Assembly (NCBI GenBank): GCA_963703315.1
Contig: OY969811.1
Span: forward strand, 4,192,001 to 4,256,000
DNA from: an uncultured cyanobacterium
Lineage (GTDB): Bacteria; Cyanobacteriota; Cyanobacteriia; Pseudanabaenales; Pseudanabaenaceae
DNA: 64,000 nucleotides
Direction of reading: 5' to 3'
Part shown: piece by piece, positions 4,120 through 22,626 of the stretch
Layout: each line of letters starts with the position of its first letter
Numbering within the stretch: the stretch's first letter is position 1
Notes under the pieces: generated by a model
The model's input: the letters and a program-made list of their open reading frames with translations, nothing else
Told to the model about the DNA's origin: nothing
The model's database searches: none
Made by a program: the position numbers and the translations under genes

Positions 4120-5196
4120 TTATCCAGATATTTCTAAAGGGATTTTGAAATAGTCTGTATCCTTGATTGAAATATGTTGATGCTGATAGTTTTCTAAAGA
4201 AAAATCTAAATTCAGTTGTAGATTAATGGATTGTGCGATCGCATATCCTAAATTGACAGGAACCGCATTCCCAATCATCTTGTAAGCATTCCCTAAATCT
4301 TGATAATAGAAAACAAAATCATCAGGAAATGTTTGGATTCTGGCACATTCCCGTACTGTTAATCGACGATAAGGAAATGACGATTCTGGATCAAAAATCC
4401 ATTTGTCTTTACTGATATGAATCATCCGATTTGCTTGGGGATGGATCGGTGCATGACGACCACCCGCTTGAATGGTGAAGGATGGCTCATCCCATGTCCG
4501 CACTCGATTTCGCGACATATACATACTTGAGAAATCACCCTGCATATACTCATGGTTAGGAACATGACAATCTTTACCATTGGATTTGCTCCGACCGATC
4601 GCTGGTTTCTCAGTACCATGTAGATCCGCGATCGCCTGTTTTAGGTTGGGAATATTAGAAGATGGTGTTAATGCATTAAAGGAAAATTTCTTACCTAAAT
4701 CAGCCCGAAATCCGATAAAAATGACTCTTTTTCGCGCTTGGGGGACATGATAATGTTTGGCCTCTAGTAACTTGTAAGCGATCGAATAACCTGCTTCTTC
4801 AAAGGCAGCAATGATATTTGCCAATGCTACGCTATGTTTTTTGTGAAACATTCCCGAAACATTTTCCGCCAGAAAAAATAAGGGCTGCTTATCTTTGAGA
4901 ACGCGCACATATTCCATAAATAGCTGCCCTCGCTCATCATCAAACCCTTTTTGAGTTCCCGCTTCACTCCAACTCTGGCAAGGTGGCCCACCAATAATGC
5001 CAATACACTCAGGAATATCTTGTGAAGGGATTTTCCGAATATCGCGCCGATCTAAGACCGTATGCCGATGATTTTTGGCATAGGTTTCCCAGATTGCTTT
5101 GTCAAACTCATTAGCCCAGACCACATCAAATCCTGCTTTAGAAAAACCTAGATCTAATCCTCCACAGCCAGAAAATAGCGAAACGATTGACTTCAT
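4120..5196 (-). CDS. DNA (cytosine-5)-methyltransferase, M.HaeIII/M.NgoPII-like
   Basis: LFSGCGG (motif I), GGPPCQSWSEAG (IV), ENV (VI), Q.RKRV (VIII), YMSRNRVR/TIQAGGRHAPIHPQA target-recognition region, YKMIGNAVP (X). Confidence 0.92.
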   Translation of the reverse strand: MKSIVSLFSGCGGLDLGFSKAGFDVVWANEFDKAIWETYAKNHRHTVLDRRDIRKIPSQDIPECIGIIGGPPCQSWSEAGTQKGFDDERGQLFMEYVRVLKDKQPLFFLAENVSGMFHKKHSVALANIIAAFEEAGYSIAYKLLEAKHYHVPQARKRVIFIGFRADLGKKFSFNALTPSSNIPNLKQAIADLHGTEKPAIGRSKSNGKDCHVPNHEYMQGDFSSMYMSRNRVRTWDEPSFTIQAGGRHAPIHPQANRMIHISKDKWIFDPESSFPYRRLTVRECARIQTFPDDFVFYYQDLGNAYKMIGNAVPVNLGYAIAQSINLQLNLDFSLENYQHQHISIKDTDYFKIPLEISG

Positions 5197-5250
5197 AGGT
5201 TATGTACTAAAGGTATGTACTAAAATTTATATGCTTTAGATTAAATTGTT

Positions 5251-5353
5251 ATACCAAAATTAAAAATGGCTCTGCCATTTTTAATTTTAAAAACTTTTGT
5301 TGGGTTTAGTTTTTAATTCATCAAAATGTGACAACACTTTTATGAATTTGTAT
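5251..5353. repeat. Miniature repeat element with two internal hairpins
   Basis: Imperfect terminal inverted repeats ATACCAAAATT...AATTTGTAT. Internal hairpins AAAATTAAAAATGGC-TCT-GCCATTTTTAATTTT and an imperfect AATTCATCAAAATGTG...CACTTTTATGAATT. Confidence 0.55.
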
Positions 5354-5363
5354 TATTGAGTGC

Positions 5364-6461
5364 TTAGAAAGTCGAGGAACTAGTTGTTTGGGTGGTGAGT
5401 ATGTGGTTCATCACAAAGGGGGCGATTTCTTGAATTGCCAGAATATTTTGGGCGGCTCCGATTTCGATCGCTACTCCCGGCATTCCAAACACAATACTGG
5501 TGGCTTCATTTTGGGCGATCGTTACACCGCCAGCTTTGCGAATTGCTAATAGCCCCGTTGCGCCATCTCGTCCCATGCCTGTTAACAAAATACCAATTGT
5601 TCTTGCACCATAGATCCTTGCGGCGGATTGGAATGTGACTGTCGCCGATGGACAATGACCATCCACAGGAAAGGCTGCCGTGTAAAAAAATCTACCGCGA
5701 TCGTCAAACTCTAACTGGCGATCCTCTGGCGCAAAGTAGATTGTGCCAGCTTCGGGCATGGTTCCCTGCACGGCAATTTTCACGGGCAGATGACAGAGAG
5801 AACCGAGCCAATCGATAAGTCCCATCAAAAAGCCGCGACTAATATGTTGTACGCATACAATCGGCGCAGGAAACCCGACGGGAATTTGGGTTAATAAAGT
5901 TTGTAATGCTTGAGGTCCCCCTGTGGACGCACCAATGGTGACTATTTGGGCATCAGGAGCGATCGCAAAAAATACAGGTGGTGGGGCTGGTTCTTTGTAG
6001 GTTTGCTTTTCGAGAGAGAGTAAAGTGTTGCGCTTAGTGCGAGTAAATACAGAAACCCCTGACAAAACCCGAATGCGTTCGATTAAGTCCTGTTGAATCT
6101 TTTTGTAATCTTCAAGCAAACCACTAGGAGGCTTAGGAAAAACATCGACTGCGCCCGACTCTAGCATTTTGAAAATGGTACGAGCATCTTCAGACTGTAC
6201 CGAAATACTAATTACCAAAATTGGGCGGGGATATTTCATCATTACCAATTCTGTGAGCTGCAAACCATTCATGCGTGGCATATGGTAATCGGTACAGATC
6301 ACATGGGGATTTACCTGTGGCAACAGGGCAAGGGCTTCAATCCCATCTTTGGCACAACCCACTACTTCGATATCGGGGGCTTGCGAGAGAATACGCTGAA
6401 GAATCTCTAGGGCAATATGTGAGTCATCAACCAGTAATACACGAATCGGCGGCTTAGACAT
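5364..6461 (-). CDS. cheB: Chemotaxis response regulator methylesterase CheB
   Basis: N-terminal REC domain; GASTGGP, VQHI, LTGMGRDGA catalytic motifs. Confidence 0.95.
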   Translation of the reverse strand: MSKPPIRVLLVDDSHIALEILQRILSQAPDIEVVGCAKDGIEALALLPQVNPHVICTDYHMPRMNGLQLTELVMMKYPRPILVISISVQSEDARTIFKMLESGAVDVFPKPPSGLLEDYKKIQQDLIERIRVLSGVSVFTRTKRNTLLSLEKQTYKEPAPPPVFFAIAPDAQIVTIGASTGGPQALQTLLTQIPVGFPAPIVCVQHISRGFLMGLIDWLGSLCHLPVKIAVQGTMPEAGTIYFAPEDRQLEFDDRGRFFYTAAFPVDGHCPSATVTFQSAARIYGARTIGILLTGMGRDGATGLLAIRKAGGVTIAQNEATSIVFGMPGVAIEIGAAQNILAIQEIAPFVMNHILTTQTTSSSTF

Positions 6462-9086
6462 TTAGATCAGCCTCCCTAGTGTCTCTAAGAGAACGTTTTG
6501 ATCGAAGGCACTCTTGACGATGTAAGCATTGGCTCCCACCTCTGCCCCACGTCGTTTATCTTCTTCCGAAGCAAGGGACGTAACCAGAATTACGGGCAGA
6601 TCGGTATATTCCTTGTGCTGACGGATGCGGGCAGTCAGTTCTAAACCATCGAGGTGAGGCATTTGAATATCGGAAACGACAGCATCAACATTTTTGGTGC
6701 GTAATTTATCGTAGCCATCCAAACCATCGACTGCTGCAATGACTTCATAACCAGCGTTTTCGAGAATACGTTTGACTTGGGTACGGACTGTTATCGAATC
6801 TTCGACCATTAAGACTATTTTCTTGCGTTGTACGGATTCTAACAGTTTACTGGTTGAGATAAATCCTGAGCGTTTACGTGCCGATTTTAGTAGGTCAGAT
6901 GGGTTTAAGACCATGCAGACTTCACCAGTGCCGAGGATGGTCGCGCCGCTAACATTGCGAATGCGTTTCAGGAGCTTGCTTTGCGGTTTCATGACCACAT
7001 CCTGCTCGTCAAGGAGGGCATCGACGATTAAGCCTAGACGCTCTACGCCCATTTTTAGGATGATGCATGGCAGAGATTTAATGTTGGTAAGGTTGCGATC
7101 GCTGATATCTAGCTCCAGTAAATCTGACAACCAAGCCACCGAGACAGGGTGTTCATCGATCGTAATCGTGTGACTACCTTCGATCGAGAAAATATCTTTA
7201 TGGGGAATCAGGCGCGTGGTTTGCACAAATTCGACAGGGAGTGCATAGGGCGTATCTTTGACTGCCGCGATCAATACGTGGGTAGTCGCAAGGGTAGTGT
7301 CAATTTGCATTCGGAAAATGCAACCTTGTCCTGCCTTTGACTCTACCCACACATCACCTTTGAGCCGTTCGATGTTGGTGCGTACCACATCTAAACCCAC
7401 GCCGCGCCCTGACATTTGGGTAACAGCTAAGCGGGTGGAAAATCCTGACGTAAAAATGAGGTTTTGGATTTGGGATGCAGACATCGAAGATAGTTCTTCT
7501 TCGCGACAAATGCCACGCTGAATCGCAGCTTGACGGATCTGATCGATATTCAGTCCCCGACCATCATCATTGAGTTCGATGATGATACTGCGAGCATTTT
7601 GCAAACCACGTAAATAAATTGTGGCAACTCTGGGTTTACCAGCTTTTTCGCGCTCTGACGGTAACTCGATGCCATGATCGATCGCATTCCGAATCAAGTG
7701 CATCAGAGGATCTTTGATTTCTTCGAGAATATGTTTATCCGCGCAGGTGTCGCCGCCTTCGATGATCAGTTCGACTTCCTTGGCTTGTTGGCGAGCGAGG
7801 TCACGCACCATGCGGGGGAACAGATTAAACACAGTGGCAAGGGGTAATAAACGCAACGTGCTAATGCCTTCCTTGAGATCCCCTGCGATCGAGTCTAGCC
7901 TTGCATTATCCTCGTAAGTATTGCGGCGTAAATGATTGAGTTGATTACCGAGGCGATCGAGACGTTCTTCGAGACGACGATGGAAATTAGCATTCTTGGG
8001 GTTATTAGAATTTTGGAGTGACTGGCGATCGCCATTTAAGCCATTACTCGCTGCCCCTTTACCATGATTTTTTTCTAGAGCTAAACGACTGACAAAGGTA
8101 TCACGACTCCATTCTTCCCACAGGCTAATAATTTCTTCGATTTCCGTGAGACGTTGCGAGATCCGAATTTTGGTAACGGTTAATTCCCCCACTTGAGTCA
8201 TTAAAGCATCTAGCTTTTGCGGATCAACTCTGATCGTATCAATGCGATATTTATCAGTTTCACTAAAAGTGGCTTGGACATTGGGAGTGGCAGTAGGGTT
8301 ACTTGCACCATTGTTAGCCGATTTCACATCAGGTTGGGCATTTACTTCAGGCGATCGCGCTGCTATTGATTCTGGTATAGGTGCTGGAATAATTGGTGGA
8401 TTTATGTTTGAGGCGATCGCTTCTTTGTTTACAGGAGCATCTTGTGGAGGATTTTGTGGGAGACTTTGCTTACTACTAGGAGCCGTACTAGATGTATGCG
8501 TTTTTGGTGGGGTAATGACGATACCGATGTTATTCGCATTGCCATTACCATTGCTGTAGTTGCCATTACCATTGGTTAAGCTCAGGTTTTGAGGAATTAA
8601 GGTAATCGGTACATAGGGAGCAACTACGGGCGTACTCATCATGATGTTCGCATTGTCTTCAAAGGGATCACTATCCGCAGTTGTTTCTTCTTGATGAATT
8701 TCTGCCCCCATCAGTTGCGCCAAAACTTCAAAAATACTAATCCGTGCTTCTTCATCGGTAATTGCTTCATGCACCAATTGCCGAATTGCATCAAGTCCCA
8801 AATATAGGCGATCGAGCATCTTTCCCGACAGTTCCAATTCTCCCCGTTTTGCCGCCCCCAACAAATCTTCAACTTGGTGAGTCAGCGTCTCCACGCCCGA
8901 AATACCAAGCATTCTGGCATCACCTTTGAGGGTATGTGCTTCTCGCAAGGCTTCCTCTAAGTGCGCCAGATCCTGTGGATTTTTTTCGAGAAACAGAAAG
9001 TCTTCTTCTAGCTTCTGAATATGTTCTTCGCTAGCAATCTTAAAGACATTTCTCAGTTCTTCATCTTCGATGTACATATCACGCAC
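6462..9086 (-). CDS. cheA: Hybrid histidine kinase CheA (Hpt-HATPase-CheW-REC)
   Basis: REAHTLKG Hpt, HLIRNAIDHGIE, DDGRG, SGRGVGLDVV, CheW domain, C-terminal REC. True start may be ATG 9077. Confidence 0.95.
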   Translation of the reverse strand: MRDMYIEDEELRNVFKIASEEHIQKLEEDFLFLEKNPQDLAHLEEALREAHTLKGDARMLGISGVETLTHQVEDLLGAAKRGELELSGKMLDRLYLGLDAIRQLVHEAITDEEARISIFEVLAQLMGAEIHQEETTADSDPFEDNANIMMSTPVVAPYVPITLIPQNLSLTNGNGNYSNGNGNANNIGIVITPPKTHTSSTAPSSKQSLPQNPPQDAPVNKEAIASNINPPIIPAPIPESIAARSPEVNAQPDVKSANNGASNPTATPNVQATFSETDKYRIDTIRVDPQKLDALMTQVGELTVTKIRISQRLTEIEEIISLWEEWSRDTFVSRLALEKNHGKGAASNGLNGDRQSLQNSNNPKNANFHRRLEERLDRLGNQLNHLRRNTYEDNARLDSIAGDLKEGISTLRLLPLATVFNLFPRMVRDLARQQAKEVELIIEGGDTCADKHILEEIKDPLMHLIRNAIDHGIELPSEREKAGKPRVATIYLRGLQNARSIIIELNDDGRGLNIDQIRQAAIQRGICREEELSSMSASQIQNLIFTSGFSTRLAVTQMSGRGVGLDVVRTNIERLKGDVWVESKAGQGCIFRMQIDTTLATTHVLIAAVKDTPYALPVEFVQTTRLIPHKDIFSIEGSHTITIDEHPVSVAWLSDLLELDISDRNLTNIKSLPCIILKMGVERLGLIVDALLDEQDVVMKPQSKLLKRIRNVSGATILGTGEVCMVLNPSDLLKSARKRSGFISTSKLLESVQRKKIVLMVEDSITVRTQVKRILENAGYEVIAAVDGLDGYDKLRTKNVDAVVSDIQMPHLDGLELTARIRQHKEYTDLPVILVTSLASEEDKRRGAEVGANAYIVKSAFDQNVLLETLGRLI

Positions 9087-9100
9087 TCCGTTTATATTTT

Positions 9101-9131
9101 ATGGAAAGTCTGCCTACGGCAGACTTTCCAT
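9101..9131. repeat. Perfect intra-operon hairpin between MCP and cheA
   Basis: ATGGAAAGTCTGCC-TAC-GGCAGACTTTCCAT. Confidence 0.65.
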
Positions 9132-10583
9132 TTAGACCACTGCTTGCAACTTCTGAGCCGCAGAATTAAGTTGATGGGTGCTGACTTTGATTTGGGATAC
9201 GCCCGAAGCGGTTTCTCGCGCACCGAGGTTAATCGCATTCATCGCTTCCACGACTTGATTGATGGCTACCGCCTGTTGCTTGGCATTTAGCGAAATCTGT
9301 TGACTGCTGATGAAGACGTTATTGATCGAGTCAGATACGCCTGTAAAGGCTTCTGCCATGCTACGGGCAAGGGACAAGCCTTCGTTTACAGTCTTGTTGC
9401 CTTCATCGGTAACCATGACTGTGGAGTTAATCGCAGTTTGGATGTCTGAAACCAGAGTGTTGATTTTTTCAGCAGACTTCTTGCTTTGATCAGCAAGTTT
9501 ACGGATTTCTTCAGCAACTACGGCAAAACCTTTACCGTGATCCCCAGCACGGGCGGCTTCTACAGCAGCATTCAGCGCTAGCATATTAGTTTGGTTAGCA
9601 AGGTCGCCCACTAGTCCTGAAATATTACCGATCTGATTAGTTTGTTCACTGAGACGCAGAATTTGTTCGGCGATCGCCCCAACTTTATCTTTTAAGGTAG
9701 TCATCTCATCGAGGGTTTGACGGACTGCTTTTGTACCACCTTCAGTGAGAGAGAGGGCATGACGTGCGCCTGAAGCAGAGACTTCCGCTTGTTCCGCCGA
9801 TTGGCGAGATGATGTACCCAGTTCACCCATTGTGGTCGAGGTTTCATTGACCGAGCTAGCCTGTTGCGAAACGGTGCGCTCTTGCTCTTCGACCGCACTG
9901 GCAATCTGTGCCGAAGAACTGGCGATTTCGCTAGCGGCTTGGTTGAGGGTGCTAGCGATCGCCGACGAGATAATAAAGGCAACCACTAAAGCAATCACTA
10001 AAGATGTTGATGCGCCGATTACTGATAGGGTCACCAACAAGTTCAAAGAAGCTTTAGTATTGGTTTCTGCGTCACTGACAACAGCATCTTGACGGACATT
10101 GAACTCCTTCAAAATTGCTTCAAAGGTCTTGAGAACTTCTGCACCAGTCTCTACAGTGTCGATCACAAGCTTACGGTTACCAGCCTTAACTGCTTCCACT
10201 TGACCAGCAGTGATTTTTTGATACTGTTCCGTAATCGCCACCATCTTTTCCATGCGTTCCCTTTGTTCAGGAATTGCATCCTTAGTCACTTCCAAGGCAT
10301 GGGCTTGAGCTTCATTGAGCATTTTGACTCCAGCTTCGTAGCGCTCAAGTATTGCCTTATCGGTGGTAAGCGCATAGCCTCGCGACTGCCTTGAAGTCTG
10401 CGAGAGCCGTAGTTCAAGTTCACTAGCAGCTTTTCCTCGCACTTCCGATCTCAGTGCTGCTTCAAAGTTTTTGCTGACATTTTGGGCTGTTGTATAGACA
10501 CCGATCGCCAACCCTGTAATCAATACCACTGGCACGGAGTAGCCAAGTAGCATTTTACCCCTGAGTTTCAAGTTGCTAAACAT
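9132..10583 (-). CDS. Methyl-accepting chemotaxis protein (two TM, helical periplasmic sensor)
   Basis: [34 protein letters not shown] signalling hairpin. Confidence 0.95.
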
Positions 10584-10669
10584 AGTCTTTAATCCTAATT
10601 AGTCTCAATTTTTAATGTACGAGTAATGAACTATGGAATAAATCAAGAATTTTATGCCTAGATGCATCA

Positions 10670-11824
10670 CTAAACTTCTTCATTAACGGAAAGGTTGCCC
10701 TCCGCAAAGATTTTGCTCAAGTTCAAAATTCCCATCATTTTTTCTTGATAGAGAACTGTACCTTGCAGATAGTCGCGATCGCCTTCACTGGTTGCCATCG
10801 GATTTGGTTTGATATCGCTCTTTTGTAAATACAGCACATCAAACACACGCTCAACAGGAATGCCCATCACTAGATCGTCAATATGCACAACGATCGCCTT
10901 AGAAGTCTGTTTCTGAGTATCTGCCTGCATATGTAAAGCACGGCGAATATCAATCAGGGTAACGATTTCGCCCCGTAGATTGATATTGCCCACCACGTGA
11001 TCAGGACAGCAGGGGATCGGTGTCACTTTATGAAATTCGGTAAATTCGCGCACAACCTCCAGATCTAAACCAAAATATTCATCGCCCAATCCCACGACCG
11101 CGAGGGGGCGTAACCCCATCAAGTCATTGCGTTGTGACTGCTGCATCAAATGCTCAGCACGAGTATGGAAAGTATGCTTTTCCCTTTCCGTGATCTGGGG
11201 GCAGAAGGTATCAAAAAAATCACCCTGCCTCTTTACCCAATGGTTAGAAGCGATCGCCTCCCTTAATGATGCCAATTCTTCAGCATCATCATGGAAATGC
11301 TCATGGTCTGAGTGATGCGGAGTTGTTGATTTTGAATGGGTAGATTTGGTGGTGATCTCCTCCATTGCATCAGCATAGTCAAATAGAGCCTCACTTTTCA
11401 GCAAAGCAATATTTTCTGATCCCAGTTTTGCCACGCTGCTGATCAGGCGTGATGGGTGACGTGTATAGATCGTACTTTCAATTAATTCAGGGGCGATCGC
11501 AATTACCTCCCGCACTTGATTGACCACAATACCGAGTATCTCCCCCTCATGCTCAATGGCAATCACCGAATCTGACAACTTATAGCCTTGAAAAGGATAA
11601 CCAAAGCGGCGGTTGAGATCCATCACAGGAATTAGCTTGCCCCTCAGATTTAATAAACCCACAATATCTTCAGGTGCATCTATGGCGATCGCCAACTCAG
11701 GTAGCGAGAAAATTTCCTTTACGGTAATCGCATCAATCCCGTAGGTTAATCCATGCAAAGAGAAGATCACGTAAGACGCTTGCGTATACTCTTGAGTCAA
11801 CATCACACTCTCCCCTAACTGCAC
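10670..11824 (-). CDS. cheW: CheW protein with two CheW domains
   Basis: Two GLLNLRG/GNINLRGEI motifs. True start probably ATG 11803. Confidence 0.9.
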   Translation of the reverse strand: MQLGESVMLTQEYTQASYVIFSLHGLTYGIDAITVKEIFSLPELAIAIDAPEDIVGLLNLRGKLIPVMDLNRRFGYPFQGYKLSDSVIAIEHEGEILGIVVNQVREVIAIAPELIESTIYTRHPSRLISSVAKLGSENIALLKSEALFDYADAMEEITTKSTHSKSTTPHHSDHEHFHDDAEELASLREAIASNHWVKRQGDFFDTFCPQITEREKHTFHTRAEHLMQQSQRNDLMGLRPLAVVGLGDEYFGLDLEVVREFTEFHKVTPIPCCPDHVVGNINLRGEIVTLIDIRRALHMQADTQKQTSKAIVVHIDDLVMGIPVERVFDVLYLQKSDIKPNPMATSEGDRDYLQGTVLYQEKMMGILNLSKIFAEGNLSVNEEV

Positions 11825-13107
11825 TGATATTGAATGCGAGTTACCATTTCATCCTTTGCCGAGGATGTTTTGGTAGCAGTCTGCGTCCCCGAAACTTGTT
11901 GTGTCCGATCAGATCTTTGGTCAAGGTTTTGTCCAGATTTCTGATCTACCCCCGATAGATTGAGATATTGACGTACGAGTTGTTTGAGACTCTCAGCTTC
12001 AAAGGGCTTCGTAATGTATTCATTAGATCCAGCCATTCTGCCTTTCATTTTGTCAAAAAAACCATCTTTCCCCGTCAACATAATGATTGGCAAATCACTG
12101 AATTGAGGCATCCGCCGAATTGTGCGACATACTTCCAAGCCATCGATTTCTGGCATCATCACATCTAGCAACAATAACTTAACGGGCTGATGATACATAA
12201 TACTCAGTCCATCTACAGCATTGCTTGCCACCGCTACTCGACATAGTGGCGATAATGTCCGTTGAATCATCTGCTGCACCACTGCACTATCGTCGATCGC
12301 TAACACCAAAGGCATCGTATCGGCTTTAGGCTGAAAAGTGACCCATCTTTCTTGTACCCATTTAGCGTAGGAATGAGCAATTTGTAAGGGGTCTTTATCC
12401 ACACAGTAAGCAATTTCTTCTAGCGATCGCTTGCCATCCACCCATTCTGTTAAATGCTTTTTGACGCTGGGTGGAATATTGTTGGTACTTCCCACCGTCA
12501 CGTAAGGGATTAATTGCATTGACGTGATCATTGGTTTCAATGATGTCCACCGATCCTTACGATGGGCAAGCTCTAGCAATAGATCCCCAACTTTCCAAGC
12601 GCTGCGTAGTTCGAGAGTTAATTTTTTCTCTAACCGAAAATTCCCCGCACAGTCCCAAATTTGCTCTAACCGCACAATCGTCTGCGCGTAAAATACTGCT
12701 TCAATCTCCCCCCATGTAAATAGCTCCATTGCGATCAATCGTTCAATCAACTCTTGAGTTGAATTAGCATCCTTTAGTTGCCGTGAAGCAAACTCGACGG
12801 CTGGAGCAATCCATTGCCGTTGTAACTTATGTTCGAGGAAATGGATGATTGAATGAATATCTGGTAAGCACGGCACTGCATACATCAGTTGCCCTTGCCT
12901 CCACGCGAGAATACAATTCGAGATTTTCTCGTCTTTAGTGTCTAGTTTCAGGTTTACAGTTCCTGAAAAAGCTATACTCTCTAACTTTTTTAAGAGAGAT
13001 AGCAGTTGTTGATTGTGAAACTTACCTTGCACAGTTTCCACCTCCTGCCCAAATGAGTGTGGATGAATCTCAAAGCTCTTGTTAAGTGAATTAATAATCA
13101 ATTTCAA
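11815..13107 (-). CDS. PatA-like response regulator (N-terminal PATAN/DUF4388-like domain plus REC)
   Basis: C-terminal REC (IDDS, LLDVMMP, MLTG, YITKPF); first gene of the che operon. Start uncertain. Confidence 0.8.
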   Translation of the reverse strand: MKLIINSLNKSFEIHPHSFGQEVETVQGKFHNQQLLSLLKKLESIAFSGTVNLKLDTKDEKISNCILAWRQGQLMYAVPCLPDIHSIIHFLEHKLQRQWIAPAVEFASRQLKDANSTQELIERLIAMELFTWGEIEAVFYAQTIVRLEQIWDCAGNFRLEKKLTLELRSAWKVGDLLLELAHRKDRWTSLKPMITSMQLIPYVTVGSTNNIPPSVKKHLTEWVDGKRSLEEIAYCVDKDPLQIAHSYAKWVQERWVTFQPKADTMPLVLAIDDSAVVQQMIQRTLSPLCRVAVASNAVDGLSIMYHQPVKLLLLDVMMPEIDGLEVCRTIRRMPQFSDLPIIMLTGKDGFFDKMKGRMAGSNEYITKPFEAESLKQLVRQYLNLSGVDQKSGQNLDQRSDRTQQVSGTQTATKTSSAKDEMVTRIQYQCS

Positions 13108-13363: not shown

Positions 13364-14572
13364 TTATGTGAGTTGATAACACTCACAAGCAATTTCCCAG
13401 TCTTCTTGAGTATGAATTACTAAAATTCTGACCTTAGAGTTAGGGGTAGAAATATCACAATCGATCGCCCGTTGGTTGTTTTTAGCTAAGTCTAATTGCA
13501 GTCCTAAAAACTCAAACCCACTACAAGCCGCTTCCCTAACTACAGCCGCATTTTCACCCACGCCTGCGGTAAATATCAAAGCATCTAAGCCGCCTAAACT
13601 GGCAATCATTGCGCCAATATGCGATCGCAAGCTATGTACATACACATCAAATGCTAGTTGGGCTTGCTGATTGCCCTCAGCGATCGCCTCAAGAATCGGG
13701 CGCAAATCTGCGGAAATGTCTGAAACTCCTAACAAACCTGATTCACGATTTAAAAGGCGATCGAGTTTTTCCACATTCATGTCAGGTTGTCGCAACAAAT
13801 GGATGAGAATACCTGCATCAATAGAACCAGAGCGACTGCCCATCATTAACCCTTCAAGGGGTGTAAACCCCATTGTTGTATCAATACTCTGTCCATTCTT
13901 AATTGCGGCAAGTGAACATCCATTTCCTAAATGACAAGTAATCATCCGTAAATCTTCGACTTTGCGATTGAGAATTTGAGCGGCGCGATCGCGGCAATAT
14001 TGATGACTAATTCCATGAAATCCATAGCGACGAATTCCCTGTTCTGTATATTTTGTTGGAATCGCGTAGGTATAAGCAGCAGGTGCTAAATGTGCATGAA
14101 AAGCGGTGTCAAATACTGCCACTTGAGGAACATTCCCAAATACTTTTTCAGCAGCGATAATTCCTTCCAAATTGGCAGGATTATGGACTGGTGCGAATAT
14201 GGCTAATTTGGCGATCGCCTCTTTCACCTGATCATTAATGATCGTACTTTGGCGATATTCTGCACCACCATGCACCACCCGATGCCCGATGATATCAACT
14301 TCTGATGGGCTTTTGAGGACTGGGGATTCGCCACTCCATAAAGTTTCCAGCATATTGGTAATAATCTCAGATCGAGAAGTTGCCGCGATTTCTTTTTCGA
14401 TAACTTTCCCATGTTGAGGTTTAACCTTTATTTCGGCAAATCCTTGATGATGTGTCCAGTCGATACTTGCTTCCCAAATTGGCTCAGGTGGCGTGTCGGG
14501 TAGTGCATCTTCTAAATCATATAAGCAACTTTTTTGACTGCTCGATCCTGCATTGAGAATTAGTATTTTCAT
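13364..14572 (-). CDS. ackA: Acetate kinase
   Basis: ILNAGSSS, GHRVVHGG, VFDTAFH, RYGFHGISH, HLGNGCS, FTAGVGEN. Confidence 0.96.
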   Translation of the reverse strand: MKILILNAGSSSQKSCLYDLEDALPDTPPEPIWEASIDWTHHQGFAEIKVKPQHGKVIEKEIAATSRSEIITNMLETLWSGESPVLKSPSEVDIIGHRVVHGGAEYRQSTIINDQVKEAIAKLAIFAPVHNPANLEGIIAAEKVFGNVPQVAVFDTAFHAHLAPAAYTYAIPTKYTEQGIRRYGFHGISHQYCRDRAAQILNRKVEDLRMITCHLGNGCSLAAIKNGQSIDTTMGFTPLEGLMMGSRSGSIDAGILIHLLRQPDMNVEKLDRLLNRESGLLGVSDISADLRPILEAIAEGNQQAQLAFDVYVHSLRSHIGAMIASLGGLDALIFTAGVGENAAVVREAACSGFEFLGLQLDLAKNNQRAIDCDISTPNSKVRILVIHTQEDWEIACECYQLT

Positions 14573-14587
14573 GGCTCTATTTTTGAT

Positions 14588-14935
14588 TCAATCTGAAATA
14601 TTCAAGAGTTTTAAGATTATTGATTTTAGTGGTTCTAGATGTTGCTGTGTGACCTCCTAAACTGTCTCTAAATCAGCATCCCAATAATGATGTATCAGAA
14701 TATCGCGCATTCCTGCGATCGCTTTCCAAGGGATTTCAGGATTTTGCATTCTTACGGATTGGGGGATTTTTTTGACTGCTTCGCCAATTAGTTCAAGGGA
14801 TCTAATTACTGCATAGGTAGTTTTTTCATCTTGCTCAAATTGCTGAAGGCTTTTTATGTCAGATGTAAACCTTTCTATCCTCTCAATTTCACGGAGAATA
14901 TCTTGCAAGAAATCGTCAAGTGGTCGTTCGGTCAT
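14588..14935 (-). pseudogene. HepT-like (DUF86) HEPN RNase toxin with a premature TAG
   Basis: HEPN motif [11 protein letters not shown] at 14657-14659 sits where W is expected (D.ETV-W), and the frame continues EVTQQHLEPLKSIILKLLNISD to TGA at 14588. Confidence 0.75.
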
Positions 14936-15372
14936 AGGTAGATGACCTCTGCTAAGATTTTTTCTTTAATTTGGGGCTTGAGTCCATCTTTTGTGACTAG
15001 ATCGATTTTCATTTGGAGGCGATCGCTTAGATAGTTTTGCAGTTCAATTAACCCAAATAGGCTAGGTTTTTGAGCATATTCTACAAGAACATCTATATCA
15101 CTGGCTGAGTTGTAATCACCTCTGGCGTATGAGCCAAAGATTCCTAGCTGGCGAACGTGATATTTATCTGTTAGTTCGTTTTTTAGCTCGGTGAGTATGT
15201 TTTGGATTTCTCTTAGAGTTTTGAGTGGTGTGCCTATGGAATGATTGGGAACTTCCGCAGCACGATCTAGAATGCCTAGAATGTAGCTCTCAACCGTGAC
15301 ATTGCTTTGATTGGCGATTTCAATCAGCTTTTGTTGTAATGATTCAGGAATTTCTATAGTTAATGGTTTCAT
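14932..15372 (-). CDS. MNT (minimal nucleotidyltransferase) antitoxin with an N-terminal RHH-like extension
   Basis: [10 protein letters not shown]...SDIDVLVE. The N-terminal [16 protein letters not shown] segment is RHH-like. ATGA overlap with the HEPN gene; the ORF track starts at 15396. Confidence 0.85.
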
Positions 15373-15398
15373 TTTACAAATCCTTCCATACTTCATTA

Positions 15399-15611
15399 CT
15401 ATGCTGCTAGGGTTTCAAAGGAAAATCTGAGATTAGATGATTCTTGGAGGCTGTAGTTGAGCTTTTCAAATCCAATAACTACACCAGATTTATTTTTCAT
15501 CAGGATTACTTCATCGCCTGTTTCTTCGCAGATATATTCTTGGTTAGGATCACCAAACCAGACGGTGAGAGTGTTTCCTAGTTTGTCGTAGTAGACTTTT
15601 ACTTCTGCCAT
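15399..15611 (-). CDS. DUF2283-like putative antitoxin
   Basis: MAEVKVYYDKLGNTLTVWFGDP...EVILMKNKSGVVIGFE; ATG at 15611 overlaps the end of the upstream gene. Confidence 0.75.
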   Translation of the reverse strand: MAEVKVYYDKLGNTLTVWFGDPNQEYICEETGDEVILMKNKSGVVIGFEKLNYSLQESSNLRFSFETLAA

Positions 15612-15913
15612 AGTTTTTCTCCTTCTTTGATTGCATCGGTGGGATAGGTGGTAATCAGGAATCCGTTGCCGTTGAGTCGTCTGGTGACTGCACAGACCCA
15701 ACGTTTTTGATTTCTGGCTCGATAGAACAGGTAAACATCGCGATCGCTTTTACTGCAACGGATTTCATCGGGTTGTGCGAGGGTTTCGCGGACTTCGGCT
15801 TCACAGTTGAGCATGATCGGATGTTTGATGGTGGTGATGATGTCCCAATAGGCTTGGGTGACGCGAACTGTGAAGTTAAGTGGTGTAAGTACTTCAAATA
15901 GTAATTCCTCCAT
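15599..15913 (-). CDS. DUF4258-like putative toxin (RelE/BrnT-like fold)
   Basis: WDIITTIKHP...PDEIRCSKSD..VYLFY...GFLITTYPTDAIKEG; overlaps the DUF2283-like partner. Confidence 0.7.
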   Translation of the reverse strand: MEELLFEVLTPLNFTVRVTQAYWDIITTIKHPIMLNCEAEVRETLAQPDEIRCSKSDRDVYLFYRARNQKRWVCAVTRRLNGNGFLITTYPTDAIKEGEKLWQK

Positions 15914-15963
15914 TTTTGTTTACCCATTGTTTTCAATGAAGTTTTTCATTTACTCTTATCCTC

Positions 15964-18900
15964 CTATGTACAGTTCAGACAACCAAGATTCGATTTTGAC
16001 GATGAGTTGTTTTGTGGAGAATGCCATGCAAAGTAGAAATCGGAATAAGTCATATTTTGAGAACAGTGCCACAAAACCAAATAAGAATTTTTGTACGAAC
16101 TAAAATTCTCTTTTTTGACAGTATTTTTTATACAATTTCTTAACCTACTAACTAACTGCACAAGCAACTCATTGTTTGTGATTCTTTCTAAATATTGATG
16201 ACACTGTTCGTGTACTTTGTTATCCAGAGAATTTATTAGAAGAGATATAAGTATTTTTGTAGAGTAATAATTTGTTTGATCTACGTCTAAGATAGTGGCT
16301 GCCATATATAACTTAGTATTATCATCTTCGGCATTATCTAATACTCTCATTAGATGTGCTATAACTCTTTGATCAAAGATACCCAACCATCGCAAAACTA
16401 AATCTAATATTTGAAAGTCAGATTTTTCTTGGCATTCAGAAATTGCTAAAAGTATTTTATATACTGATCTTTCAATGTCTACGTCTATTAAATCTATAAT
16501 TTCTAAAAGAGGTTGTGGTGTATATGGAATCTCAAGACTTTTATGTAGAGTTTTTGCTGGATTTTGTGGATGTGGTAAATAGTAGTCAATTACATAAGAA
16601 TGAGTTTTAATATAATTATTATTTTTAGTAATCAAACAGAGATTGTCTTCTTCTATAGGGTAAAGTTCTTTTAAAAGCTGCTGAGCAATTAAAAAAATAT
16701 TTTCATTTTTTGTATTTTCTAAGATTGAAAATAATCCTACAATAGCATCAATATTATCAATTTCTCTACTAGTAATACTAACAATAATTGCAATGCGAAT
16801 TATTTCATCAATATCTGAATTTAAGATGTTATTATATATTTCTTTTGTTTTTAAATCATGAGGAGAAACTTTAAATAAATATTCGCAAATGTGAAAACAT
16901 TTCCAAGCTATAGCATTATCATGAACAAGTTTATTCTCATGAAAATTCAATAATTGATTTAGTTTATATTTAATTCTAATTGGATCTAACTTACCTAAAA
17001 TCTCTCTCGCTATTCTAATATTTACTTCTAATATGTTGTCAGAATTGAAAGACCATTCAATAATCTGATCTATAATTGTATTAGTGAATTCATGATCATA
17101 AAATTCACTAGTAATCTTCGCAGCTAAACAATACGCATAATAATTATAGAGATTCATACAGCCGTCATAAAAGTGAAGTAGACTTTTGATAAAATCACTT
17201 TTTATATTTATCTCATTGCGCCCCAACCAAATTAGAATTACTTCTTCCCAAGACAGAGAAAAAGCTCTGTATTTTTCATCCTGTATTGGTCTGTCTAAAT
17301 GATTTTTAGGCAAAAAGAAATCCCAATCAGAAATTGATAAAGCAGCAAAATACTCTTGAAACGTTGTATGCCAAAAAGCATACGTGTTCTTATTAAGATT
17401 TTTTGAATATTTCCCTACTTGATTTAGTAGTCCAAATTTTTTGGTTGCTTGCCAAAACAAGCTATTTTCATCTTCTAAATCACCGAGGATTTTGCTGATC
17501 TCATCTTCTGGCAATAAATATCTATAGTCTTCACTGTCGAGTGCAAATACAGCTAATTTACCTAATGCATTTTCTAATTGCTTGCTAGATTGTATTCCTT
17601 TCTGTTTATAGAATGCTTTAAGCATTAACCGATAAAGTTCTGCTCTTGTATCAGGTAAATTTTCTTCTCCATTTTTCCACAAATAACATAGTAAAGCTAA
17701 GCGTAAAGGGTTTGCGACCATATCCCGAAGTCTTGACTTGCTTTCATCTCTTAATACTTCCTTTAGACTACCAGCAAGATTCTCTCCATCTCCCCAAGAA
17801 AACCGATCAATAAAATCCTCTACCTGATCTGGATAAGTAAATGGAATAATTCGATATACATCAAATGCACCTTGCCATTGAGTATCCCAAGTATTAATAC
17901 GACAAGTTAAAATAACCTGAACATTATCAAAAAGAGTTTTTTTTAACTGTTCGCGTAGATTACCTAAAATATTTTGTTCATTTGACTCATCCGCGCCATC
18001 AAGTAACAAAACAACTCGACCACTATTTAATAAATCATTCAAAGATTGTAGATACTGATCTGCAATCTTTAGACTAGAAGATTTTCTTGTTACTTCTTTC
18101 AGGTATTCATCTTCTAGATAAGCTTCGATATTTTGGGTAACTTGCTTCAATGAAATCCATATTGGCACTAGATCCTTATTCAGAGATTCAAGGTAAATAC
18201 CAATACGCTGAAGCAACGTAGTCTTTCCTGCTCCTGCTTCACCAGTAATTGCAATCCTTAAACCTTGGCTGTTTTTTGTCTTGCGATCGCGAATAATCTC
18301 ATCCAAAAACTTATCCGTAGTTGGAAACCTTTCACCTTCCTCATTTTCAGTGGGTTGATAAAAGCTTGATCCTTGCTCAGAACTCAGAATGTCATCACGT
18401 TTTTTTGATATTTGCTTGCGTTCTACTATTTCTAGAGAGACAACATTACTCTGATCGGCAGTCAGTCCAATTTCTGCCATCAAAGGATTTTCGTTAGTCG
18501 TTAAGTATTTATAACTTCTTTTAGAGGCTTCTTTACACAGTTCATCTATATTAAGTTTGACATAATCTGAAGCTAATTGAATCCCATCAGAACTCAGTAA
18601 TCGTTTCCAATGTTGTAAATTTCGACATCCACGAATTGTTATAAGTTGTAGACCCTCCGCACAAAGGATTTTCCAAACACTAGCTGACTGATTACGATCA
18701 TGTAAAAGTTGAGATAGCAGATATTGAACTTTATTCCCATCCTGTAATCCTTCATCTAGATCTCGGACAATAATTACCATCCTTCTAAAAAATTCTAGAT
18801 CAGATTCAGGTAAATTTGCTTCAAGAAACTTACTTTGAACTTCTTTTGTTATCGTCTTTAGATCGTCATTACGTCCTTGCCCCAGACGCTTAAAATCATG

Positions 18901-19242
18901 GCGTAAGTCTTCTCGAATAGTTTTGCTAGCAGTCGAGTCAGTTAGGATTACTCCATAAAGTTCGGGATCAGCCTTAAGTCCTTTTCCTAGCTTTATCAAA
19001 GGTTCCCAGAGCTTATCTTTTTGCAATCCATGTTTAGCTTGGAGTTCGATCTTAATACCACTACGCAGAGTGATACATAAGTCATCGCCAGCCCCACCAG
19101 TTTCGCTAGCTACAGAAATTGGCACGTCAGGGTCGTTATCTTCAATCCAGCGCAAACTTTCTTCAGCCAAAATGTGAGCAGCGACATAGGCTGTTGCTCT
19201 AGCTTGATATTCATATCCGCCGCCACCACCACTACCACTCAT
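15964..19242 (-). CDS. NACHT (STAND) NTPase with N-terminal restriction-endonuclease-like domain and C-terminal helical (HEAT-like) repeats
   Basis: N-terminal GYEYQ...GDDL...IELQAK (PD-(D/E)xK-like); Walker A GEAGAGKT; Walker B LLLDGADE; NPLRLALLC; FWHTTFQEYFAA; C-terminal LWHCSQNMTYSDFYFAWH. Confidence 0.85.
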   Translation of the reverse strand: MSGSGGGGGYEYQARATAYVAAHILAEESLRWIEDNDPDVPISVASETGGAGDDLCITLRSGIKIELQAKHGLQKDKLWEPLIKLGKGLKADPELYGVILTDSTASKTIREDLRHDFKRLGQGRNDDLKTITKEVQSKFLEANLPESDLEFFRRMVIIVRDLDEGLQDGNKVQYLLSQLLHDRNQSASVWKILCAEGLQLITIRGCRNLQHWKRLLSSDGIQLASDYVKLNIDELCKEASKRSYKYLTTNENPLMAEIGLTADQSNVVSLEIVERKQISKKRDDILSSEQGSSFYQPTENEEGERFPTTDKFLDEIIRDRKTKNSQGLRIAITGEAGAGKTTLLQRIGIYLESLNKDLVPIWISLKQVTQNIEAYLEDEYLKEVTRKSSSLKIADQYLQSLNDLLNSGRVVLLLDGADESNEQNILGNLREQLKKTLFDNVQVILTCRINTWDTQWQGAFDVYRIIPFTYPDQVEDFIDRFSWGDGENLAGSLKEVLRDESKSRLRDMVANPLRLALLCYLWKNGEENLPDTRAELYRLMLKAFYKQKGIQSSKQLENALGKLAVFALDSEDYRYLLPEDEISKILGDLEDENSLFWQATKKFGLLNQVGKYSKNLNKNTYAFWHTTFQEYFAALSISDWDFFLPKNHLDRPIQDEKYRAFSLSWEEVILIWLGRNEINIKSDFIKSLLHFYDGCMNLYNYYAYCLAAKITSEFYDHEFTNTIIDQIIEWSFNSDNILEVNIRIAREILGKLDPIRIKYKLNQLLNFHENKLVHDNAIAWKCFHICEYLFKVSPHDLKTKEIYNNILNSDIDEIIRIAIIVSITSREIDNIDAIVGLFSILENTKNENIFLIAQQLLKELYPIEEDNLCLITKNNNYIKTHSYVIDYYLPHPQNPAKTLHKSLEIPYTPQPLLEIIDLIDVDIERSVYKILLAISECQEKSDFQILDLVLRWLGIFDQRVIAHLMRVLDNAEDDNTKLYMAATILDVDQTNYYSTKILISLLINSLDNKVHEQCHQYLERITNNELLVQLVSRLRNCIKNTVKKENFSSYKNSYLVLWHCSQNMTYSDFYFAWHSPQNNSSSKSNLGCLNCT

Positions 19243-19483
19243 TCGATTAATTAACTTGACTTAACTGTGACAATTAACTGTAATCCTAACCCATTCAACC
19301 ATTGATTTAACTCATACACCGCTTGACTTTTATCACTTGCGTCAAAATCTTTCATCCATTGCCGATCGCCTTCACCACCCAATGCGATCGCCTATCCCTC
19401 AACCTCCTACGATAACTTGGTCGCGATCGCACGCAAATCGGCAAAATCTTCCGTTTTTTCGATTGGGATCGCTCACCAAATTT

Positions 19484-20122
19484 TTAAGTGCCAGATAGCG
19501 ATCGCAAATCAGCATCCATAAAACTGCGATCGCCTAAAACCTTGAGCATTGGACCCAATGCACCAAACTGAACTACGCTCAGCGAGGCGGCTGGTACATC
19601 AATGCGATCGCGATATCTGCCCATATCAATTCCCAATAAACCACAGAGAATGACGCGAATTGTTGCCTTGTGGGAAACGACTAATACATTACCCGATGGA
19701 TACATTTCTTGGATTTCAGCAACTACGAAGGAAGCACGACTCGCAAGTTGTACCGCCGTTTCGCCGCCTGTGGGTGGATTCCAAGCAGGTTCCGTTAACC
19801 AACGTAGATAATCATCCGTATAATTCTCTTTGACAAAATCATTAGTCAATCCTTCCCATTTGCCATAGCGCAATTCTCGCAAACCATCGCGAAATTGCAT
19901 TTCCATACCGATCGCCTTACATAAAGGAGTAGCAGTAGCGATTGTGCGTTTCATTGGACTCACAAACACAGCATCCCATGCGATCGCTTTATGGGCATTG
20001 GCAAAAGCTGCTGCCATTCTTTCGCCATTCTCAGTTAACTCAGGATCAAGATCGCCACAATAGCCACCAGTGCGACTATAGGCGGTTTCACCATGACGGA
20101 GTAGATATAGTTTTAAGCTCAT
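19484..20122 (-). CDS. Histidine phosphatase (phosphoglycerate mutase-like) family protein
   Basis: LLRHGET, LRELRYGKWEG, VVSH. Confidence 0.9.
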   Translation of the reverse strand: MSLKLYLLRHGETAYSRTGGYCGDLDPELTENGERMAAAFANAHKAIAWDAVFVSPMKRTIATATPLCKAIGMEMQFRDGLRELRYGKWEGLTNDFVKENYTDDYLRWLTEPAWNPPTGGETAVQLASRASFVVAEIQEMYPSGNVLVVSHKATIRVILCGLLGIDMGRYRDRIDVPAASLSVVQFGALGPMLKVLGDRSFMDADLRSLSGT

Positions 20123-20136
20123 AATTCCTTATTGAT

Positions 20137-20177
20137 TTGCTCCCCTCTCCCACTGGGAGAGGGGCTGGGGGTGAGGG
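20137..20177. repeat. Short dispersed palindromic repeat (CCCCTCTCCC/GGGAGAGGGG family)
   Basis: TTGCTCCCCTCTCCCACTGGGAGAGGGGCTGGGGGTGAGGG; a second copy lies inside mutL. Confidence 0.75.
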
Positions 20178-20178
20178 T

Positions 20179-22626
20179 TTAATGTGGATAACGCCAGTTC
20201 ACAATTTCGGGCTTATCGATGCCATGCTCGTAGGCATATTGACGACATTCGATTTGCTGATTGCGTAGGTCTTCCTTCGCATGAGCGCCGATATTTTGGA
20301 GCTTCGGCACACGGTCAATCACATCGATCGCCAGACTAAAACGATCAACTTGATTGTTAATCGCAAGTTCCAGAGGCGTATTGATATTGCCTTTCTCCTT
20401 GTAACCACGCACATGGAGATTCTTGTGATTGTTGCGGCGATAGGCGAGACGGTGAATCAACCAAGGATAGCCGTGGAAATTGAAAATGATCGGTTTATCA
20501 GTGGTGAAGAGCGAATCAAAATCGCGATCGCTTAAACCATGAGGATGCTCGGTATCAGGCTGTAACTTGAACAGATCCACGACATTGATAAAGCGAATCT
20601 TCAACTCTGGAAAATGCTCCCATAGCAAGATCGTAGCGGCTAAAGCTTCCTGTGTGAGAATATCACCACAGCCCACCATCACCACATCAGGCTCAGTGCC
20701 TTGATCATTACTTGCCCAATCCCAAATACCTAAGCCCTTAGTACAGTGCTTAATCGCTTCATCCATACTCAAATATTGCAAATGCGATTGCTTGTCACAG
20801 ACAATTACATTCACATAGTCAGTACTTCGCAAACAGTGATCAGAAACTGATAGCAAGGTATTCACATCTGGCGGTAAATAGATGCGGGTTACTTCGGCAC
20901 TCTTGTTGACCACCACATCCAAAAATCCGGGATCTTGGTGAGTAAAACCGTTATGGTCTTGTCGCCATACTGTTGAGGTAATCAACAGATTCAGAGAAGA
21001 GATTGGCGATCGCCAAGGAATCTCTTTACTGATTTCCAACCATTTACAATGCTGGTTAATCATTGAGTCGATTACATGGACAAAGGACTCATAAGTAGAA
21101 AAGAATCCATGTCTACCAGTCAGCAAATACCCCTCTAGCCAACCTTCTAAGGTATGTTCGCTGAGGATTTCCATGACGCGACCATCGGTAGCAAGTTCAC
21201 CACCATCAGCATCTTCGGGTAAGTATTCCGCAATCCAGAACTTCTTGCTGACTTCGTAAATAGCTTGCAATTTATTGGATGTATTTTCATCAGGACCAAA
21301 GACACGGAAGTTCTCCATGTTTTGACGCATCACATCGCGTAGAAATACACCAAGAGGCTTGGTATTCTCTGCTTCAATTGAGCCTGCCTTATCGATTTTC
21401 ACACCGTAATTACGGAAATCGGGCATTCTCAAAGCACGCCGCAGTAACCCACCATTAGCAACAGGGTTTGCACTCATACGGCGATCGCCCTTTGGTGCAA
21501 GTTCCTTCAATTCAGGAATTAATTTGCCTGAAGCATCAAACAATTCATGAGGCTTATAGCTCAGCATCCAATCGGATAGCATTTGCAGATGCTCAGGATT
21601 ATTATGCATTCCCGATAGTGGCACTTGGTGCGCTCTCCAGAACCCCTCAACCTTATGTCCATCGACTGACCCAGGTCCAGTCCAGCCCTTAGGAGTCCGC
21701 AACACAATCATGGGAAATTTGGCGCGTTTGGGAATACCAGTACTGCGGGATTCTTGCTGAATAGACTTAATTTCGTTGATGCAATGTTCGAGGGTAGCGG
21801 CGATCGCCTGATGCATCGACTCAGGATCAGAGCCTTCCACAAAATAAGGTTGATAGCCGTAGCCAATAAAGAGACTTTCTAGCTCTTCATGACTGATCCG
21901 CGAAAGCACCGTAGGATTATTAATCTTGTAGCCATTCAAATGCAGAATTGGTAATACTGCACCGTCACGAATCGGATTGATAAACTTATTAGAATGCCAA
22001 GCAGTTGCAAGCGGACCTGTTTCCGATTCACCGTCACCGACCATGACTACCGAGATCAGATCAGGATTATCAAATACAGTGCCATAGGCATGGGAAACAC
22101 TATAACCAAGTTCACCACCCTCATGGATTGACCCCGGAGTTTCAGGTGTGCAGTGGCTACCAATTCCTCCGGGGAAAGAAAACTGCTTGAAGAAATGCTT
22201 TATTCCTTCTTCGTCTTCACTGACATCATGATAAATCTCAGAATAGGTTCCTTCTAGATAAACAGGTCCTAAAACCCCTGGTGCGCCATGTCCAGGACCA
22301 GCGAGAAAGATGGTATTCAGATCGTATTTTTTAATCAGACGATTCAAATGCGTATAAACAAAACTCAGACCAGGACTTGATCCCCAATGTCCGAGCAAGC
22401 GATTTTTGATATGTTCTGGCTTGAGAGGTTCCCGCAAAAGTGGATTTTCGCGGAGATAGATCATCCCGATCGCTAGATAATTACAAGCTCTCCAATAGGC
22501 ATCGATTTTACGCAATTCATCGGCACTGAGAGGGGTTCCTGCAACGGTGGAGCGGGCAGTGCCATAGCAACTGATTGATGAGTTGAATGATTCTGGATCG
22601 GATATTTTTAGAGGAGTTGTTACCAT
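20179..22626 (-). CDS. xfp: Phosphoketolase (XFP/XPK)
   Basis: [55 protein letters not shown]. Confidence 0.96.

Follow-up and report, generated by a model that had tools for sequence, protein, structure and literature searches.

Within a 64,000-nucleotide stretch of DNA from an uncultured cyanobacterium of the Pseudanabaenaceae (contig OY969811.1, positions 4,192,001 to 4,256,000; hereafter the window, whose coordinates are used throughout), the minus-strand gene at 15964..19242 encodes a three-part NLR-type protein of 1092 residues, in which a Cap4-like nuclease is followed by a NACHT domain and by a helical sensor that ends in an NCC-H domain. With moderate confidence we regard this protein (the receptor) as a likely single-gene anti-phage receptor that was likely assembled by recombination. 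The order of effector, NACHT and sensor is already known from bNACHT and Avs proteins, and the receptor is a variant of these with a predicted function; less ordinary are the three-way exchange of its modules and its setting in toxin-antitoxin arrays. An earlier note, made from the letters of this DNA, had described the open reading frame (ORF), its N-terminal motifs and an intact NACHT Walker A and B, and all of these are present: GYEYQ at residue 9, GDDL at 52, IELQAK at 65, Walker A GEAGAGKT at 334 (18220-18243) and Walker B LLLDGADE at 412 (17986-18009). It had overlooked the NCC-H cap, the downstream toxin-antitoxin genes and the insertion context. Pfam matches above cut-off were NACHT at residues 330-475 (E 8.6e-12) and NCC-H at residues 1046-1074 (16021..16107; E 1e-12); the scan gave no HEAT match and left residues 1-300 without any match. 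Structure models and fold matches support the tripartite layout. These and all other genes described below for the window lie on the minus strand.

Our structural and sequence comparisons indicate that residues 1-225 (18568..19242) are a predicted Cap4-type DNase of the PD-(D/E)xK class that escapes the Pfam Cap4 profile. The AlphaFold model of this domain (predicted local distance difference test score, pLDDT, 91.9) was matched by Foldseek to LmuA, Cap4, Hachiman and Avs3, which supports the restriction-endonuclease fold on which the earlier note had staked its proposal. A VIA-align search of 48,161 chains was led by Avs3 (Z 13.5, root-mean-square deviation 3.7, 205 aligned residues), then Cap4 (12.9), Hachiman (12.1), LmuA (11.9) and Cap4 (11.5); the next entry reached 7.8. 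Because these five Cap4-type entries far outrank the next one, we assign the domain to the Cap4 type, and its top fold matches are all defence nucleases. The match takes in both the PD-(D/E)xK core and the helical C-terminal part. The proposed Cap4/Mrr-like DNase effector thus stands in its Cap4 half and falls in its Mrr half: LlaBIII and MspJI, which we take to be Mrr-type, reached Z 6.6 and 6.5, where the Cap4-type entries reached 11.5-13.5, and two of the 32 relatives scanned had an Mrr_cat match (E 0.04).

Searching with residues 1-230 retrieved 86 other proteins among 1566 candidates; 79 of them entered an 80-row alignment, the remaining seven being near-copies or a fragment. Residues Q13, E47 and D54 are kept in 80/80 rows, which places the N-terminal motifs beyond chance, while D53, E66 and Q68 occur in 79 and K70 in 78. 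A set of 32 more distant rows keeps E47, G52, D53, D54, Q68 and K70 without exception. The domain therefore contains the acidic residue and the QxK motif of Cap4-type nucleases (E47, D53/D54 and E66-x-Q68-x-K70, with Q13 upstream), roles that are assigned by position and not by residue-level superposition, and we consider residues 1-225 a putative active nuclease. A cluster with 19% PF14130 came up in the Atlas as a lead (0.89). According to the source data of PMC13581612, changing QxK to AxA abolishes toxicity in Avs7, 8, 11, 12, 14, 17, 18 and 20. When 50%-cluster representatives were searched with the nuclease, 594 matched at E<=0.001, and many of the best 150 of these are about 1300 residues long. 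The main host of the module is a family of NACHT proteins of 1050-1350 residues (P0016-type and P0225-type), 43 of which form one conserved-sensor cluster; we note it as a candidate uncharacterised Avs-like family. It also occurs on a Rhizobium plasmid (L102:7851-11885). The module had no match among 50,697 phage records and one match in plasmids.

The NACHT module spans residues 321-640 (17323..18282) and is preceded by a linker (residues 226-320; 18283..18567) that goes with it, with the effector junction at about residues 225-235. A search with residues 240-740 yielded 1002 proteins at E<=1e-60, and among the 120 listed most carry NCC-H, many together with HEAT and NCAB1. Eight NACHT motif residues, covering Walker A (GxxxxGK[ST]), Walker B (hhhhDGhDE), the sensor-1 residue R448, the helical-domain residue P512 and the winged-helix residue H625, are invariant in 109/109 rows; the winged-helix motif reads FWHTTFQEY (17350-17376). 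The model of residues 231-1092 (pLDDT 78.8, below 50 at residues 867-909) matched NLRC4 best (Z 21.0, root-mean-square deviation 7.5, 406 aligned residues) and resembles NLRC4, NLRP3 and NOD2 over its first ~500 residues, a search that barely probes the sensor. Among the 60 matches listed for the profile of A2 against the PDB there were only NLR NACHTs and repeat proteins. The Pfam NACHT and C-terminal NCC-H calls, the grouping with NCC-H-bearing homologues and the NLR fold match agree with the earlier reading of a cyanobacterial HEAT-type NACHT and place it in the HEAT/NCC-H clade.

Beyond about residue 660 the model is all-helical. Identity to the closest NACHT relatives falls in the helical domain past the winged helix (residues 641-740; 17023..17322), which is followed by a variable, low-GC, all-helical sensor, apparently of degenerate HEAT type (residues 741-1010; 16213..17022). 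Mean identity within the clade is 30-54% over residues 231-730, 11-25% over residues 731-1030 and 38% at NCC-H. The nearest Atlas cluster of the sensor is HEAT_2 + NCC-H (0.89), and a clade-specific repeat hidden Markov model gave a weak score of 2.2 bits, equalled by 8/500 shuffles. The sensor looks like decayed HEAT repeats; of the helical-repeat C-terminus described before, the helices are borne out by the model, whereas the repeats are degenerate. No close relative of this sensor was present in the sequences searched.

The earlier note held that a HEAT-type NACHT had acquired the nuclease. Our comparisons support exchange of the module between NTPase lineages and leave the direction of gain unrooted. 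The protein P0002 is 77% identical to the receptor over residues 1-225 and 24% over the NTPase, and 82 carriers of the module have a Walker A, their NTPases grouping into four clusters (48, 15, 9 and 7 proteins) and three singletons, two of them NB-ARC. Proteins P0100-P0103, the closest NACHT relatives, share the NACHT (72-80%) and linker (77-82%) of the receptor and have an unrelated N-terminus of 115 residues and another sensor. The pairing of a Cap4-type nuclease with an NCC-H-clade NACHT was found in 6 other proteins (135 clade proteins examined). On the nuclease tree the seven NCC-H-clade carriers need six changes, at least four of which are forced by starred branches (approximately unbiased test, p 9e-68); on the NACHT tree (46 rows, a subset of the 135) six changes are needed and at least five forced (p 5e-93). 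Neither tree distinguishes gain from loss, and P0104, scored as 'other', is an N-truncated fragment. P0001 and P0021 may go back to one shared acquisition. We infer that effectors were swapped just before the linker, at about residues 225-235.

Sensors appear to have been exchanged as well. Sixteen of 47 other genomes of the genus encode a clade NACHT (E<1e-28), and we compared 13 full-length genes as proteins and 17 genes as DNA. The G056 and G036 proteins have 100% identical sensor segments, NACHTs of 45% identity and unrelated N-termini; G016 and G039 are 67% identical in the sensor, 68% in the N-terminus and 44% in the NACHT; and G047 and a G000 paralogue are 90% identical in the N-terminus, 93% in the NACHT and 23% in the sensor. 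At the DNA level, G036/G056 agree at 95% over 2187 bp, G016/G039 at 82% over 2559 bp and G013/G041b at 84% over 1503 bp, and all three stretches begin three codons before the winged-helix FxHxxFQEY motif, although local alignments tend to begin at conserved motifs, some of the genomes are metagenome bins and the breakpoints come from pairwise comparison. Pairs that share their NACHT mostly diverge 10-40 codons past this motif, and it is in this zone too (residues 640-650) that the receptor and its closest NACHT relatives part. These patterns suggest that sensors were swapped at the winged-helix motif, at about residues 620-650, and that the receptor is likely a recombinant of exchangeable modules. 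The Kibby preprint (bioRxiv 10.1101/2022.07.19.500537) reports that related NACHTs tend to share sensors; judged from the sequences compared here, this trend fails in the genus, where sensors cross NACHT subclades. A broader proposal, which we hold only tentatively, is that the genus runs a combinatorial NLR repertoire in which effector, NACHT and sensor are cassettes recombining at the linker, at FxHxxFQEY and at the C-terminal cap, a sensor plugged into a 45%-identical NACHT stays functional, whole receptors move by means of homology in the surrounding toxin-antitoxin arrays, and the receptor is a three-way recombinant. The G000 paralogue (L076, G000:C1:1629700-1634500) has a helix-turn-helix-like N-terminus and is embedded in a toxin-antitoxin array; it and the G009 protein have unrelated N-termini but sensors of 97% identity.

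The receptor gene is accessory. Its GC content is 33.2%, against 42.2% for the genome, and falls in the lowest 0.4% of 1392 equally sized genome segments; the nuclease was found at none of the 40 genus pgm loci compared (from 40 of 41 other genomes with a match), in 2/47 genus genomes (one weak) and in 2/300 genomes of the phylum. It sits between a histidine-phosphatase (pgm-like) gene of the xfp operon (19484..20122) and the acetate kinase gene ackA (13364..14572). In the window this interval measures 4.9 kb and holds two remnants, the receptor and two toxin-antitoxin-type pairs. Elsewhere, ackA follows pgm within 220 bp in 10 loci, past one methyltransferase in 5 and past 5.4 kb in 1, and 24 loci have no ackA within the stretch covered. 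NACHTs of the same clade behind pgm in G009 and G016 were considered as orthologues and rejected, being 40-41% identical with other N-termini. One remnant is the 3' end of the methyltransferase gene (19408..19453) that relatives carry between pgm-like and ackA. The other is the 3' part of a small gene (19247..19392) that begins at an octamer of the HIP1 motif, which has a density of 1.8 per kb in the host genome and, together with the names given to homologues, marks the host as a cyanobacterium. This small gene has no Pfam match, and its place behind a Gp49-like ORF suggests that it is antitoxin-like. We considered this shared 146-bp element as a dedicated leader RNA and rejected this, since it reads as the 3' part of the small gene.

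The DNA upstream of the receptor is a mosaic. Positions 19453-19393 resemble the pgm site of G042 (53/61), positions 19311-19240 resemble the sequence that precedes the G041 Cap4-NACHT gene (68/72, against 39/72 for G042), and the block between is common to all small-gene copies; contigs from sequencing runs X3 and X5 depart from the window at 19392 and continue with G041-type sequence. The mosaic and these contigs therefore make a crossover in the shared small gene, placed at 19316-19308, the likely route by which the receptor entered the pgm-ackA site, which may be a recurrent landing site. Among 23 small-gene fragments, six have their start no more than 5 nt from an intact HIP1, two of these being of common ancestry, and a further six or so start at HIP1-like cores, near the chance expectation from the two sites. 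DNA of the DUF2283 or MNT-HepT pairs of the window recurs as 88-92% copies at seven of the clade loci scanned for toxin-antitoxin genes. Sequence comparison suggests that whole genes move between toxin-antitoxin arrays via shared small genes.

Independent metagenome contigs carrying the same gene rule out an assembly artefact. Run X1, which contains 95% of sampled words, may be the source; X2, from another study, covers 15589-19391 in a single contig of 3857 bp, which shows 98 differences and a frame intact over 3.3 kb, and an X3 contig spans the nuclease-NACHT junction. P0348 differs from the receptor at 33/1092 residues, none of them catalytic or in motifs. In the nuclease region, to which the codon counts are confined (40/41 differences listed), the X2 allele has 10 synonymous and 7 nonsynonymous codons and the X3 allele 19 and 13, on 157 and 545 sites, respectively. 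The resulting ratio of nonsynonymous to synonymous rates (dN/dS) of ~0.2 indicates purifying selection on the nuclease.

We consider anti-phage abortive infection the likeliest function, by analogy with Avs3, Avs7 and bNACHT25, from which the mechanism is transferred. For SeAvs7, PMC13581612 describes that target binding lifts autoinhibition, that ATP binding leads to a tetramer and that Cap4 cuts DNA. At rest, an ADP-bound NACHT and the sensor would keep the nuclease of the receptor inactive. A phage-made protein would bind the helical sensor, exchange of ADP for ATP would drive oligomerisation, probably to a tetramer, and the clustered nuclease domains would cut DNA non-specifically, so that the infected cell would die and its neighbours be spared.

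Several observations weigh against this interpretation, in which nuclease activity and trigger are themselves predictions. Pfam Cap4_nuclease (PF14130) gave no match on the nuclease domain at E<=0.1, Pfam had no Mrr match on it either, and neither the protein nor an N-terminal profile retrieved a nuclease from the PDB by sequence. The suggested PADLOC check did not bear out an Avs or bNACHT assignment: PADLOC 2.0 and NCBIfam 20, libraries that may lack the newest families, gave no match to either, and PADLOC returned only a weak match to the candidate PDC-M54A at residues 4-72. This similarity (E 1e-5 in the receptor, up to 1e-13 in relatives) is confined to the N-terminal part of models of 1600 positions that describe another protein family. 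NCBIfam gave only generic P-loop matches on the receptor, and 20 relatives likewise lacked a named family, with weak matches far below cut-off. In EcAvs19, a QxK mutation leaves toxicity in place (PMC13581612), so the motif is not always the carrier of killing. The sensor (residues 761-1010) was matched by 7/135 clade proteins at 19-29% identity, a variability that, on sequence comparison, is unlike Avs families, which keep one sensor per conserved phage fold, and most clade members have N-termini that are helix-turn-helix-like, effector-associated or very short, and not enzymes. The neighbours are toxin-antitoxin genes and not named defence systems. Counting in favour of the interpretation, toxin-antitoxin Pfam matches lie within 2.5 kb at 13/16 clade loci, against 2/16 random large G000 genes (Fisher p 2.4e-4); on the other side, 3/16 loci lack them, and the p value, uncorrected for kinship, overstates the contrast, as the genomes are kin and the control is a single genome. 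The G000 paralogue is among these clade loci, L073 did not have the length needed for a scan, and 116 ORFs were scanned with some repeated homologues left out; near the shorter NACHT paralogues the count was 0/4.

An unlikely alternative with the same nuclease output is that the sensor acts as the guard of some host protein or process disturbed by infection. bNACHT25, a DNase-NACHT, senses phage via host DnaJ (PMC12169576), and the NCC-H cap, kept while the repeats vary, fits the 'hybrid' type tethered to a host component in the Kibby preprint; rapid turnover and exchange of sensors would, however, be expected more of receptors for varied foreign ligands than of receptors for a fixed host target. 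DNA destruction might also serve a non-phage setting, such as defence against plasmids and other mobile DNA, responses to predators or competitors, or regulated cell death in the filament. The sequence itself shows no phage link, and a CARD-NLR-like system reportedly controls the release of gene-transfer agents. NACHT paralogues are enriched in multicellular bacteria (Kibby preprint, bioRxiv 10.1101/2022.07.19.500537). We nevertheless judge this improbable, since the Cap4-fold matches (Avs3, CBASS Cap4, Hachiman, Lamassu) are defence nucleases and presence in so few genomes makes a core developmental role unlikely.

Slightly less probable again is that the gene rides along in toxin-antitoxin arrays as a silent or selfish element, a recent chimera whose parts no longer cooperate. 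Such a state would agree with the debris nearby (a truncated HepT, the methyltransferase remnant and the small-gene remnant), with the degenerate repeats and with a scan upstream of the receptor that found no sigma-70 promoter match; there was no RNA run among the sequencing runs listed, which has no bearing on expression. It is countered by the intact 3.3-kb frame in the independent X2 contig, by the low dN/dS of the nuclease with unchanged catalytic residues, and by recurrence of the pairing of nuclease and NCC-H-clade NACHT in the six other proteins.

CBASS Cap4, Lamassu LmuA, Hachiman HamA and HerA-DUF4297 have the same nuclease fold as the receptor. Their activation depends on cyclic nucleotides or on SMC, helicase or HerA partners, whereas the nuclease of the receptor is fused to a NACHT. 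With Avs3 and Avs7 (Cap4-STAND-TPR; PDB 8DGC; PMC13581612) the receptor shares an N-terminal Cap4-type nuclease with QxK and the order of effector, NTPase and helical sensor; it differs in that its NTPase is a NACHT with NLRC4, NOD2 and NLRP3 as best solved matches and no Avs profile match, and in that its sensor is probably HEAT-derived, ends in NCC-H and varies within the clade. The clade 6 DNase-NACHT-NCH1 proteins bNACHT25 and bNACHT32, as described in bioRxiv 10.1101/2022.07.19.500537 and PMC12169576, are likewise single-gene NACHTs with an N-terminal PD-(D/E)xK DNase and the winged-helix histidine (H625 here), but bNACHT25 is described as Mrr-like with an NCH1 C-terminus, whereas the receptor is Cap4-type with a repeat region and NCC-H. 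Cyanobacterial NACHT-HEAT-NCC-H(-NCAB1) proteins (Pfam PF22730) share the NACHT clade, the NCC-H cap and the HEAT_2 + NCC-H Atlas cluster; the receptor differs in its Cap4-type effector, present in only 6/135 of those examined, and in lacking an NCAB1 tail and a HEAT Pfam match.

The Kibby preprint names the NCC-H domain, lists it together with restriction-endonuclease effectors and HEAT sensors, notes effector turnover or variation within genera, and finds NACHT proteins commonest in cyanobacteria (58% of genomes); a recent trigger screen centred on Enterobacteriaceae homologues (PMC13581612). In the literature examined we found no experimentally tested NCC-H member and no paper on NACHT defence or abortive infection against cyanophage in cyanobacteria. 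Searches on NACHT with Cap4, HEAT and cyanobacteria, with toxin-antitoxin arrays, cyanophage defence and domain shuffling showed the exchange in this clade in no title or start of an abstract; supplements may already list the architecture or the sensor cluster. Because most members carry non-enzymatic N-termini, the clade is hard to assay, and a natural Cap4 fusion would offer a simple read-out, killing or DNA cleavage, for what its sensors detect, while the natural winged-helix junction indicates where other sensors could be grafted. Should sensors prove portable from one NACHT subclade to another, bacteria would have a counterpart of the NLR shuffling seen in fungi and plants, and the receptor would be a chassis on which cyanophage triggers could be mapped. 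Exchange at recurring junctions would give the genus a recombinational route to new receptors.

Downstream of the receptor lie a likely toxin-antitoxin pair (15399..15913), made up of a 104-residue ORF without Pfam match (15599-15913) and a DUF2283 ORF (15399-15611), and a pair of MNT nucleotidyltransferase and HepT genes (14657..15396). The HepT frame (14657-14935) ends at codon 93 with TAG, where the G059 copy has Trp and reaches 115 residues; its MNT partner has an intact frame. The small, likely antitoxin gene (query L076:8468-8773) occurs in 39/48 genomes, often as 3' fragments. The pgm-ackA site of G042 (L029) holds a small-gene remnant and a different insert, with a 387-residue ORF, an AAA_16/KAP-like ATPase and a TPR protein. 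Just upstream of clade NACHTs at L060:3436-4483, L061, L062, L067, L069, L071 and L072 stands a divergent pair encoding a 118-residue ORF and a 229-residue PLD-like protein, which is not in the window and might act as a regulator or a partner nuclease of the NACHT. Four NACHT paralogues of 740-775 residues lie on G000:C1 near 1.737, 2.023, 2.610 and 4.351 Mb, and almost every genome of the genus has this type. A GC-rich repeat of 41-44 bp, with ~65 other copies in the genome, separates xfp from the pgm-like gene at positions 20137-20180. Downstream of ackA, a chemotaxis-like cluster (4120-13107) encodes CheA, MCP, CheW and response regulators, as labelled from their translations.

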